A stretch of DNA of 32,000 nt, taken from Candidatus Hermodarchaeota archaeon (GTDB lineage: Archaea > Asgardarchaeota > Heimdallarchaeia > Hodarchaeales > Hodarchaeaceae). Shown here one piece after another: positions 29,596 to 32,000 of this stretch. Under the pieces are notes generated by a model. The model saw nothing but the letters and a program-made list of their open reading frames with translations, had not been told where the DNA came from and did not search any database. The DNA lies in the NCBI GenBank assembly GCA_048886185.1, contig JBHLKY010000003.1, positions 60,001 through 92,000 of the forward strand. The letters run 5' to 3'. Every line of letters begins with the position of its first letter. The stretch's first letter is position 1. The translations under genes were made by a program, and so were the position numbers.

Positions 29596-29717
29596 TCACT
29601 TTCTTTAAAAATCCTTGTCGTTTTTATTATGTAAGTTTATAGGTAAGTATTTGGTTATATGGTAAGAAATAGTTTTCATCTAATAATAACCTGGTAAGAA
29701 TCATCATGTTATGTTAT

Positions 29718-30825
29718 CCTCCCACACCTACCTTTCCTTCCATTGGAAACACTTAATTAATAATAATTTAATGTCTTACCATATGATTTTATATATCTCA
29801 ATAACATGATTCTATTTCGATGGAAATTCTCAGAATATTAGCTATTAAGGCCACTATTGATTTTTTATAATTAACAAACTAGTTCTAATCATTATTCAAT
29901 AAAAAATGACTTTTTTGTCGTATATAATTTTTCTTTAAAACCTTCAGTTTTCGCGGTTATCTAGTTCCTGATGTTCCATTGGAAATCAACGGGTACGGGG
30001 TTCCGACTTTAATATGAAATCTGATAATACCTCTTTTGAGAGTAGAATTTAAGGTTAAAAATAATTATTTATAAAAGATAAAAGAGATTTCCAATACTCT
30101 AGGACTAAGATAATCGATAAAAGACTTGTGGCCTTCCTTTTGTTTTCCTAGGAGGTGAAAATTTTACTACAATCTTTTTTAGCATCAATCTGTTTAAAGC
30201 ATCATAGATAGTTGTTCTTGGAATCCCTGTTTTTTTACAAAGATCCATACGTGTTGAAGGTTGGATTTCTGAGAGTGCTCCTAGTACTATTCGATCTGTC
30301 TCATTCGTTAATTCCATATCTGAGATGATTGAATGTTTTTGAGTAAGATTCTCGGTCTCTTTTTTTGACGAAAACGATTTCTGAAGATATTGGTTCATAT
30401 CTTATCACAGTGATGTTATATCCTTTTACATATCTCTATAAGCGGCCATATTTAAGATTTTCAGTATTACATTAATATTAAAGACAACAGAAACACCATG
30501 AAATAGCTTTTAAAAAAAATATTCTCATAAAAAACTAATTTCAGTAAAAGAGACTATTATTTCACACATTAAAAGTGTAAGTAGTAACCATGATCAGTCA
30601 ACACTTTCATTAAAAGCAAAAACGCTAATGATAGTTTCACCGGAAATGAAGGTCAAACTAGCTGTCAACTAGGTTTCTCTATAAAAAAAGATAATTTTCC
30701 TAAAGTTTCCTTCTTTAATAGACTTAAATTTAACTAATAGCTCATCCAAGGGAAATTTTAAAGATATTTATGAAATAAGATATAGTTCACATTGATAGAT
30801 GCCACCCCCTCATTTCCATTGGAAC
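29718..30825. other. Candidate replication origin: cluster of ORB-like boxes in AT-rich DNA
   Basis: Exact TTCCATTGGAA at 29738, 29974 and 30814, each with a G-rich tail on one side; degenerate copies at 29815, 30634 and 30745. Confidence 0.65.
30105..30398 (-). CDS. TrmB-like winged-helix DNA-binding protein
   Basis: STRMDLCKKTGIPRTTIYDALNRL...GRPQVFY HTH/wing pattern. Confidence 0.8.
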   Translation of the reverse strand: MNQYLQKSFSSKKETENLTQKHSIISDMELTNETDRIVLGALSEIQPSTRMDLCKKTGIPRTTIYDALNRLMLKKIVVKFSPPRKTKGRPQVFYRLS

Positions 30826-31172
30826 TTTTTTATGAGAAGGAATGAAAATATATGATGATTTTTCACATTGAGAAAATATTAATCTATTAAATAATTGAGT
30901 AAAAGATTTCTAAATAGCAAAAAAAAGTGACCGATGGTAATATATCACAATTGTAGCCAATAACTTATCGCATAACGACAAATTAAGAGATTCTTCTTGT
31001 TCACAACATATAAAAAATTATTAATTCACATGAGAAAAAGCATTAACATGATAAAAGATATCTAGGAAAAGTCAATGTCGATAGGTAAAGATGTTATTGA
31101 GATATAGATTAAACTTTATTAGAGTGAAAGTAGAAATCTAACTTGTGAAAGAATTAAGTTGAAAGATGTTCC

Positions 31173-31694
31173 TTGAAGGGTATATCCATCGGGAAAATCG
31201 AATTTAAGGTTATTATTATGCGTGAAACGGGTCCGAAAGTAACTGCAAACAATGATAAAATCACAATATCCTTTGATAGGAAAATTAGGTTAGGTCCTTT
31301 ACATACACTTATTGAGGGATATTTACAATTGACTAGAGATCAACAAAAGCAGATCGACTATTTAATGGAATCTCTTTTGATGGAAAATGACATTCAGGAA
31401 GAATATTCAGAGTCTCATGGTGATAGATTTGCAGTTCTTACTGATCTAAAAACGAAGAAAGAAAGAATTCTCAATATTGTTGGAAATAGAGCAAATCCGA
31501 ACTATTTAACTGCTCGAGAAATCCAGGAATTATACCAGCATTACATGAAAGAGGAAATAGGGATCTCAACTATTCAGACAAATTTGAATCGATTAGTAGA
31601 GCTTGGATTAGTTGAGCGGCAGGAAGGAGTTAATCCCATTGAATATCGGATTAATCCTAACAGAGCTCATGAGATCCCAAAAGTGTTAATGTAA
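31173..31694 (+). CDS. Hypothetical protein with C-terminal winged-helix domain
   Basis: LTAREIQELY...IGISTIQTNLNRLVELGLVER...YRIN; likelier start ATG 31218. Confidence 0.7.
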   Translation: MKGISIGKIEFKVIIMRETGPKVTANNDKITISFDRKIRLGPLHTLIEGYLQLTRDQQKQIDYLMESLLMENDIQEEYSESHGDRFAVLTDLKTKKERILNIVGNRANPNYLTAREIQELYQHYMKEEIGISTIQTNLNRLVELGLVERQEGVNPIEYRINPNRAHEIPKVLM

Positions 31695-31894
31695 CGGGCG
31701 TACTCCACTAAATCTTTTAAGATTTTCTGAAATACATAGTTTTTTGGCGAGAAATTGGCTTTTTGTTTCTTTATTTTATTTTTACTTCATTATTAGGTTC
31801 TTAACCAATTTTTCAAAACATAATGTCTAGATATTTTCGAATCTTAAATTTTTATGAGATGAGTAATAATACAGAAACCCATGCGGTGGATTAT

Positions 31895-32000
31895 ATGTCC
31901 AAAAACCAAGTTATTAAAATATCTGAAAAAAGAGGTCAATCTTCTTCTGAATTGAAATCTACAGCAAGAACAGAAAAACCAGCAATTGTTCATGAATTGG
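31895..32000 (+). CDS. Partial ORF running off the window (unknown)
   Basis: ATG 31895 preceded by GGTGGA, open to the window end (MSKNQVIKISEKRG...); in-frame ATG also at 31859. Confidence 0.35.
   Translation, partial: MSKNQVIKISEKRGQSSSELKSTARTEKPAIVHEL

Follow-up and report, generated by a model that had tools for sequence, protein, structure and literature searches.

Where does chromosome replication start in the Hodarchaeales, and with which initiator? The question is raised by a stretch of 32,000 nucleotides from Candidatus Hermodarchaeota archaeon (hereafter the window; positions 60001-92000 of contig C3, or C3:60001-92000), which belongs to a 4.84-Mb assembly of 75 contigs with 35% G+C (G000). 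The original prediction placed a replication origin near the right end of the window, at a cluster of sequences resembling the origin recognition boxes (ORBs) of archaea, and described it as lacking an adjacent orc1/cdc6 gene. We consider positions 29.6-31.2 kb of the window to be, with a probability of roughly 0.85, an oriC1-type chromosomal replication origin of this Hodarchaeales (Asgard) archaeon, arranged on the canonical plan and very probably the main starting point of its chromosome replication. The reading as an origin is well supported: canonical ORBs, with an inverted pair among them, are unique in the genome and conserved in relatives, and this sequence anatomy is accompanied by linkage to orc1-1 and to the gene of the PolD small subunit (DP1) and by a weak change in GC skew.

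All three exact dyads of the original prediction are present with the sequences and coordinates that it gave. The dyad TTCCANTGGAA is found three times in the window, where 0.13 occurrences are expected by chance, and none of 100 shuffled sequences reaches three. The whole assembly contains 20 such dyads; three of them cluster within 1.1 kb at the origin locus, and only these three among all 20 are followed by a G-string. Boxes of relatives, 15 in all, went into a 25-nt weight matrix, from which the archaeon's own genome was excluded to avoid circularity, and the whole assembly was scanned with it. ORB-a (30.1 bits), ORB-b (29.4 bits), and ORB-c (26.1 bits) occupy ranks 1, 2, and 3 genome-wide, and the best match outside the locus scores 23.7 bits. 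The possibility raised with the original prediction, that the motif is equally frequent genome-wide, does not agree with these ranks. Six sites were examined among the next-best matches (on contigs C2, C38, C4, and C14); since each is isolated and lies within a long open reading frame (ORF), they are treated as chance matches.

The same type of box stands beside cdc6 in Thermococcus, at some Nitrososphaerota loci, and in Ca. Asgardarchaeum abyssi. The dyad with a G-string on one side, by which the ORBs of archaeal oriC1-type origins are recognized, is found here with the same consensus as in those cdc6-linked boxes. The Thermococcus boxes read GTTCCAGTGGAAATGAAACTCTGGGGGGT, and the type of the present boxes is the same, like the Pyrococcus/Thermococcus sequence GTTCCAnTGGAAAT followed by a run of G.

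The original prediction also described two inverted pairs, and both are borne out. ORB-c and ORB-a face each other across a spacer with 76.6% A+T, which places it in the top 0.5% of the 222-bp windows of the genome; the least stable 100-bp duplexes lie in this spacer, at approximately the top 1% of the genome for low stability. A minus-strand ORB, an AT-rich DNA unwinding element (DUE), and a plus-strand ORB, the arrangement expected of oriC1-type origins, are represented by ORB-c, the spacer, and ORB-a. A 2026 Ori-Finder-Arch preprint gives this arrangement as the prevalent archaeal pattern. The second pair consists of the mini-ORB-like box and ORB-b, which form an inverted repeat with 80% complementarity, 154 nt apart. 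The features of the locus are summarized in Table 1.

Table 1. Boxes, motifs, and small winged helix-turn-helix (wHTH) genes of the proposed origin, in window coordinates
Feature	Position	Strand	Description
ORB-c	29718-29750	-	Dyad TTCCAATGGAA, then split G-rich string (GGAAAGGTAGGTGTGGGAGG); left arm of the core inverted pair
ORB-a	29973-30000	+	Dyad GTTCCATTGGAAAT and G-string CGGGTACGGGG; right arm of the core inverted pair
ORB-b	30804-30825	-	GTTCCAATGGAAATGAGGGGGT; most canonical of the three boxes
Mini-ORB-like box	30634-30652	+	TTTCACCGGAAATGAAGGT; full dyad minus one base
Candidate DNA unwinding element	29751-29972	.	222-bp spacer between ORB-c (-) and ORB-a (+)
97-aa TrmB-like winged-helix gene	30105-30398	-	Pfam TrmB, 3.7e-6; between ORB-a and ORB-b
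158-aa winged-helix gene	31218-31694	+	Conserved beside the origin
123-aa TrmB/MarR-like winged-helix gene	31823-32000	+	Runs off the window; ends at C3:92194
Second motif, copy 1	29657-29670	+	ATATGGTAAGAAAT; left of ORB-c; conserved in congeners
Second motif, variant	29691-29701		CCTGGTAAGAA
Second motif, copy 2	29771-29787	-	Reverse of CATATGGTAAGA; inside the unwinding element, beside ORB-c
TTCACA words (n = 6)	30561-31149	5 on +, 1 on -	Between the 97-aa and 158-aa genes

Six genomes, this one and five congeners, were aligned, and identities are given relative to this genome. In G010, G008, G014, G006, and G011 the order, strands, and spacing of the boxes are as here, with two of the three boxes in G011. 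Counted over the genus, the full set of three is present in five congeners, and one or two of the boxes in two others. The distance from the dyad of ORB-c to that of ORB-a is 233-236 bp in five genomes, and the distance from ORB-a to ORB-b is 823-842 bp in six. Identity across the five aligned congeners is 0.89 for ORB-a, 0.85 for ORB-b, 0.80 for the mini-ORB, and 0.75 for ORB-c, against a mean of 0.55 over all non-coding columns and just 0.47 in the middle part of the ORB-c/ORB-a spacer. Conservation of boxes above the level of their spacers, another property of oriC1-type origins, is thus observed (75-89% versus 55%). Among the degenerate copies listed in the original prediction, the one at 30634 is this conserved mini-ORB that pairs with ORB-b. 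Those at 29815 and 30745 do exist, with identities of 0.45 and 0.37 that fall below the spacer mean, and are probably chance occurrences. GTTCC half-sites are found beside ORB-a (29960-30012), one 9 nt before the dyad and one right behind the G-string (GGGGTTCCGAC). Both are kept in four of the five aligned congeners, and they may provide additional half-site contacts.

A complete congener genome, G015 (CP070760), should be described separately. Its locus (C1:1669000-1684000 of that genome) retains ORB-b, the 158-aa and 123-aa genes, DUF6788, and cdc6, and ORB-c, ORB-a, the 97-aa gene, and GDPD are all absent from the 10 kb upstream. Either rearrangement has placed the core inverted pair elsewhere or it has been lost. 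The G015 genome is a single contig, yet is scored as 70% complete. Two bare dyads 1.3 kb apart, at 3.58 Mb in the complete congener genome CP070695, were set aside, as they have no G-strings and are not scored by the matrix.

The initiator gene lies outside the window. The genome has four Orc1/Cdc6 genes, and the best TIGR02928 score (438.8 bits) is that of C3:95061-96308 on the plus strand, a gene whose start lies 3.06 kb beyond the window and 4.2 kb away from ORB-b. The suggestion to look for cdc6 just beyond 32 kb was therefore a good one, and the claim that an adjacent orc1/cdc6 is lacking holds for the window itself, the apparent lack being largely an effect of the window boundary. The product gives 376 bits against Orc1-1 of S. 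solfataricus (2QBY_A) and 363 bits against ORC1 of A. pernix (2V1U), both named Cdc6 homologues in their entries, and 24 of 34 residues in its winged-helix stretch are identical to those of 2QBY_A. The other three paralogues reach at most 147 bits against 2QBY_A, and their best match is Cdc6 of Pyrobaculum (1FNN). Judged by these alignments, the product of C3:95061-96308 is the only Orc1-1-type paralogue of the genome. ORB-like repeats were also sought near the other three Orc1 genes (on contigs C1, C13, and C36), and none is convincing within ~1.5 kb.

The gene order in the genus is MoxR-like AAA, VWA, GDPD (-), [ORB-c, spacer, ORB-a], 97-aa wHTH (-), [mini-ORB, ORB-b], 158-aa wHTH (+), 123-aa wHTH (+), DUF6788 (+), cdc6 (+), and PolD DP1 (-). 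Linkage to an Orc1-1-type initiator gene, as expected of an origin, is therefore syntenic, though not in the adjacent spacer. The DP1 gene, with DNA_pol_E_B and Metallophos domains, directly follows cdc6 (C3:96337-97962, minus strand), and a PolD small subunit gene also follows cdc6 in all 15 Thermococcales loci examined (14 Thermococcus and one Thermococcaceae). This shared neighborhood suggests a conserved replication island of origin, cdc6, and PolD, not an orphan origin. In the congeners, DUF6788 directly precedes cdc6; here an insertion of ~2.2 kb, specific to this genome, separates them (C3:92596-95008). ORB-b is 1.9-2.2 kb from cdc6 in G008, G010, G014, and G006, 4.2 kb here, and 7.0 kb in G011, the longer distance here being due to the insertion. 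Just upstream of cdc6 (~C3:95009-95029, outside the window) is a conserved degenerate box, whose dyad begins 51-54 bp ahead of the gene in the congeners. That conserved small winged-helix genes stand between origin and initiator is a real feature and a mildly unusual one.

Comparison with known origins gives both likenesses and differences. In Thermococcus, an ORB(-)/ORB(+) pair 262-268 bp apart lies upstream of a plus-strand cdc6, and the layout here is the same with 236 bp; a further degenerate box 30-40 bp before the cdc6 start of Thermococcus has its counterpart in the cdc6-proximal box here. The Pyrococcus/Thermococcus Orc1 proteins are 53-57% identical to the present one, and the PolD small subunit gene adjoins cdc6 in both. 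The distance from the pair to cdc6 differs: 5.1-5.3 kb here (2.8-3.3 kb in the closest congeners) versus 0.5-2.2 kb in Thermococcus, mostly 1.1-1.5 kb. Unlike in Thermococcus, the origin here has four small genes within it or between it and cdc6, the G-string is closer to the dyad, three further Orc1 paralogues are encoded, and DP1 is convergent with cdc6 instead of co-directional. The gene after DP1 encodes an STT3/AglB oligosaccharyltransferase.

The oriC1 of Sulfolobus/Saccharolobus (ORB3-DUE-ORB2 with ORB1) resembles the present locus in its three ORBs, in the inverted pair around a DUE, and in its Orc1-1-type initiator. It differs in that the core is ~130 bp, versus 222 bp here, and in that orc1-1 is not immediately adjacent here. 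According to the 2025 UBP paper (PMC12141716), Sulfolobus oriC1 needs both of its inverted ORBs in vivo, and these guide MCM to the DUE between them. The haloarchaeal oriC1 has ORBs with a G-string, as here, and a conserved set of small neighbor genes travels with it; here the neighbors are wHTH genes and DUF6788, with one gene between the boxes. According to a review of archaeal origins, the extended G-string of halophiles is essential for autonomous replication. The Ori-Finder-Arch preprint includes at least one model origin that has no adjacent initiator gene.

In two genomes the GC skew shifts close to the boxes, but only weakly. On contig C3, the cumulative G-minus-C minimum is at 86,016, 3.7 kb left of ORB-c, and the mean skew is -0.008 on the left and +0.008 to +0.010 on the right. 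In a complete congener (CP070695, 4.94 Mb, boxes at 2.716-2.718 Mb), 60 evenly spaced 20-kb samples were taken, with the ORB boundary specified in advance. The negative-to-positive step at this boundary ranks first of the 60 when flanks of 4-8 samples are used, and second with a flank of 3. In the contiguous 400 kb around the congener site, skew is mostly negative over 200 kb (mean -0.031) until it levels off 0-24 kb short of the boxes, and four positive 10-kb windows come next; the cumulative minimum there is 24 kb from the boxes. In all, 32% of the congener genome was sampled.

By analogy with Sulfolobus oriC1 (PMC12141716) and Pyrococcus oriC, a mechanism may be proposed. Orc1-1-type monomers, encoded 4.2 kb downstream, would bind each ORB, the winged helix contacting the TTCCAnTGGAA dyad and the AAA+ domain the G-string. 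The inverted pair ORB-c(-)/ORB-a(+) would recruit two MCM hexamers onto the 222-bp AT-rich spacer, in which melting and bidirectional synthesis would begin. ORB-b and the conserved mini-ORB could serve as accessory Orc1 sites, and through the degenerate box 30-50 bp before cdc6, Orc1 probably controls its own expression.

Several observations weigh against this reading. In the 15 kb of G015 examined, ORB-b is the sole box of the three. The boxes here are outside the spacer adjacent to cdc6, with three conserved small genes and 2.2 kb in between, and a protein gene (97-aa) sits between ORB-a and ORB-b. The A+T content of the core spacer is high, yet not unusual, as the long intergenic spacers of this genome are generally AT-rich; for this reason it supports an origin and is not proof of one. 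GC skew is consistent with an origin at the locus but weak: as a genome-wide maximum, the step in the complete congener is not significant (permutation P 0.17-0.64), and the skew right of the site is flat or noise beyond 40 kb. Firing at this locus, like Orc1 binding and MCM loading there, is what we infer from the analogy, and since the three additional Orc1 paralogues could serve origins elsewhere, "main" is likewise only an inferred quality.

Other functions of the boxes should be considered along with these points. Archaeal Orc1 proteins also act as regulators, for which PMC9738581 offers Orc1-2 in Sulfolobus as an example, and a review notes that some archaea grow without origins. The boxes might then be Orc1 sites for transcriptional control of the flanking genes (GDPD, wHTH, and DUF6788-cdc6), with replication starting elsewhere or at no fixed place. 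The degenerate box that every congener has 30-50 bp before cdc6, the position of the boxes within promoter-containing spacers, and the weakness of the skew fit this explanation. We regard it as unlikely, because the inverted pair around an AT-rich spacer conserved in length and free in sequence is the pattern of an origin core rather than a promoter layout, ORB-a is downstream of the stop codon of the 97-aa gene and not at a promoter, and the same layout is seen at the cdc6-linked ORB locus of Thermococcus; the uniqueness of the boxes in the genome further argues that there is no Orc1 regulon. Still less probable is that the dyads are operators of a local winged-helix protein (97, 158, or 123 aa) and not Orc1 sites. 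Three wHTH genes are indeed conserved in or beside the cluster, and dyad symmetry suits dimeric wHTH repressors. However, the dyad with its G-string recurs at the Thermococcus and Nitrososphaerota cdc6 loci, in whose examined flanks tblastn (E <= 1e-4) found no wHTH homologue, and a one-sided G-string on a dyad is not expected if a symmetric dimer reads it. An operator should co-occur with its regulator and overlap a promoter, whereas ORB-a is 3' of the 97-aa gene and ORB-b is ~400 bp from either start codon; CATATGGTAAGA and TTCACA are moreover available as likely wHTH sites.

Another possibility is that the locus serves an integrated plasmid or virus as its origin, or is a secondary origin lying dormant, and is carried along with an orc1 and small DNA-binding genes of its own. 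Archaeal integrated elements commonly have small wHTH genes in clusters together with orc1, the locus contains a 2.2-kb insertion, and the genome has four Orc1 paralogues. Such a source is nevertheless highly improbable: the Orc1 here is an Orc1-1 orthologue (TIGR02928, 438.8 bits), its gene has the same PolD DP1 linkage as in Thermococcales, ordinary chromosomal genes flank the locus and remain syntenic across a genus in which Orc1 has diverged to ~83% identity, and the arrangement is present in another Asgard lineage too (Ca. Asgardarchaeum abyssi). All three explanations fit less well than an oriC1-type chromosomal origin because of the cross-phylum box type, the asymmetric G-string, the length-conserved and sequence-free spacer, the Orc1-1 orthology, and the synteny with core genes. 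An origin of the WhiP/Cdt1 type (the Sulfolobus oriC3 kind) was rejected as well, given the canonical ORBs and a 158-aa neighbor that is modeled as a single generic wHTH.

The small winged-helix genes are constant companions of the boxes. The 97-aa gene is kept at the same position in the congeners, and its product and the 123-aa protein are paralogues with 45% identity. The true start of the 158-aa gene is the ATG at 31218 and not the TTG at 31173, as homologues align from MRETG. Sequence homologues of the 158-aa protein come from Hodarchaeales-type assemblies. Its model (mean pLDDT 70, with the N-terminal half poorly modeled) is predicted to have a single generic wHTH fold, with RosR, ST1889, MarR, and Fur as best PDB matches and proteins of the PadR kind too. 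Two other identities were considered for the protein, a Cdc6 winged helix lacking the AAA domain and an initiator resembling Cdt1/WhiP, and the fold search gives only generic wHTH regulators; a protein atlas search yielded sub-threshold leads only (0.89). Beside its ORBs, Ca. Asgardarchaeum abyssi, whose Orc1 is 58% identical, encodes homologues of both small proteins, the 97-aa one (38% identity, E 1e-20) and the 158-aa one (26% identity, E 2e-6), suggesting that the linkage is more than chance and older than the genus. DUF6788 gave no alignment with the 109-aa ORF of the Asgardarchaeum locus. The 97-aa and 123-aa proteins and the Ca. Asgardarchaeum abyssi homologue share a basic C-terminal tail, K/R-G-R-P-x-V-F/Y-Y, which may be an extra DNA-contacting arm. 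The most conserved non-ORB blocks of the spacers, 30449-30470 (95% identity) and 31107-31131 (92%), are A/T-rich and TATA-like; located ~50-110 bp upstream of the 97-aa and 158-aa starts, they are probably the promoters of these genes. Known RNA families were searched for in the spacers and none matched (best E-value 0.93).

The second motif should be noted for its position. Copy 2 is 88% identical across the congeners and occupies the same place in six genomes, and the copies at 29657-29670 and 29771-29784 form an inverted pair that brackets ORB-c. A third copy of CATATGGTAAGA stands ~38 bp before the start of DUF6788, and hence of the DUF6788-cdc6 unit, in ten genomes. Three of the 13 genome-wide copies of ATATGGTAAGA lie within 2.6 kb at this locus. 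A genome-wide regulon or promoter motif was considered and rejected: the short core of CATATGGTAAGA is found 195 times versus 188 expected, and copies elsewhere have no consistent distance to start codons, so that only the origin-linked copies appear to be conserved. The TTCACA words number 6 in 1577 bp, against ~1.0 expected from the genome density, and their alignment columns are invariant. Both CATATGGTAAGA and TTCACA may be targets of the local winged-helix proteins.

In Sulfolobus, the ucm motif is bound by UBP, and the UBP paper asks whether other lineages have such factors (PMC12141716). Copy 2 of the second motif, which is not an ORB, is placed within the DUE like ucm, the likeness being one of position alone. 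It is possible, though doubtful, that the small winged-helix proteins are lineage-specific accessory origin factors of Heimdall-group Asgard archaea, which, together with CATATGGTAAGA and TTCACA, would couple origin activity to initiator expression in a manner analogous to UBP and ucm.

Two further side observations concern the surroundings of the initiator genes. The insertion between DUF6788 and cdc6 contains a 469-aa minus-strand tandem-repeat protein with hydrophobic ends and no Pfam match, along with short ORF fragments. The most divergent Orc1 paralogue (C36:12393-13463) is ~2 kb upstream of an MCM gene (C36:12393-17955 overall), in which the two halves of the Pfam match are ~1.9 kb apart within one open frame of 1340 aa; the arrangement suggests an MCM with an intein, encoded beside an orc1 paralogue.

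Our literature search found no experimentally defined or dissected Asgard origin, only bulk computational prediction covering the phylum, and no paper on the origins of the two complete congener genomes. Predictors that inspect just the initiator-adjacent spacer could miss the present origin. Its exact boxes, candidate unwinding element, and cognate initiator are now defined for binding and MCM-loading assays, and the embedded winged-helix genes, along with the second motif, offer candidates for accessory origin factors that can be tested. The Hodarchaeales are among the closest known archaeal relatives of eukaryotes, which makes the type of their origin informative: it looks sequence-defined and canonical, of the Orc1-1/ORB kind, rather than eukaryote-like.

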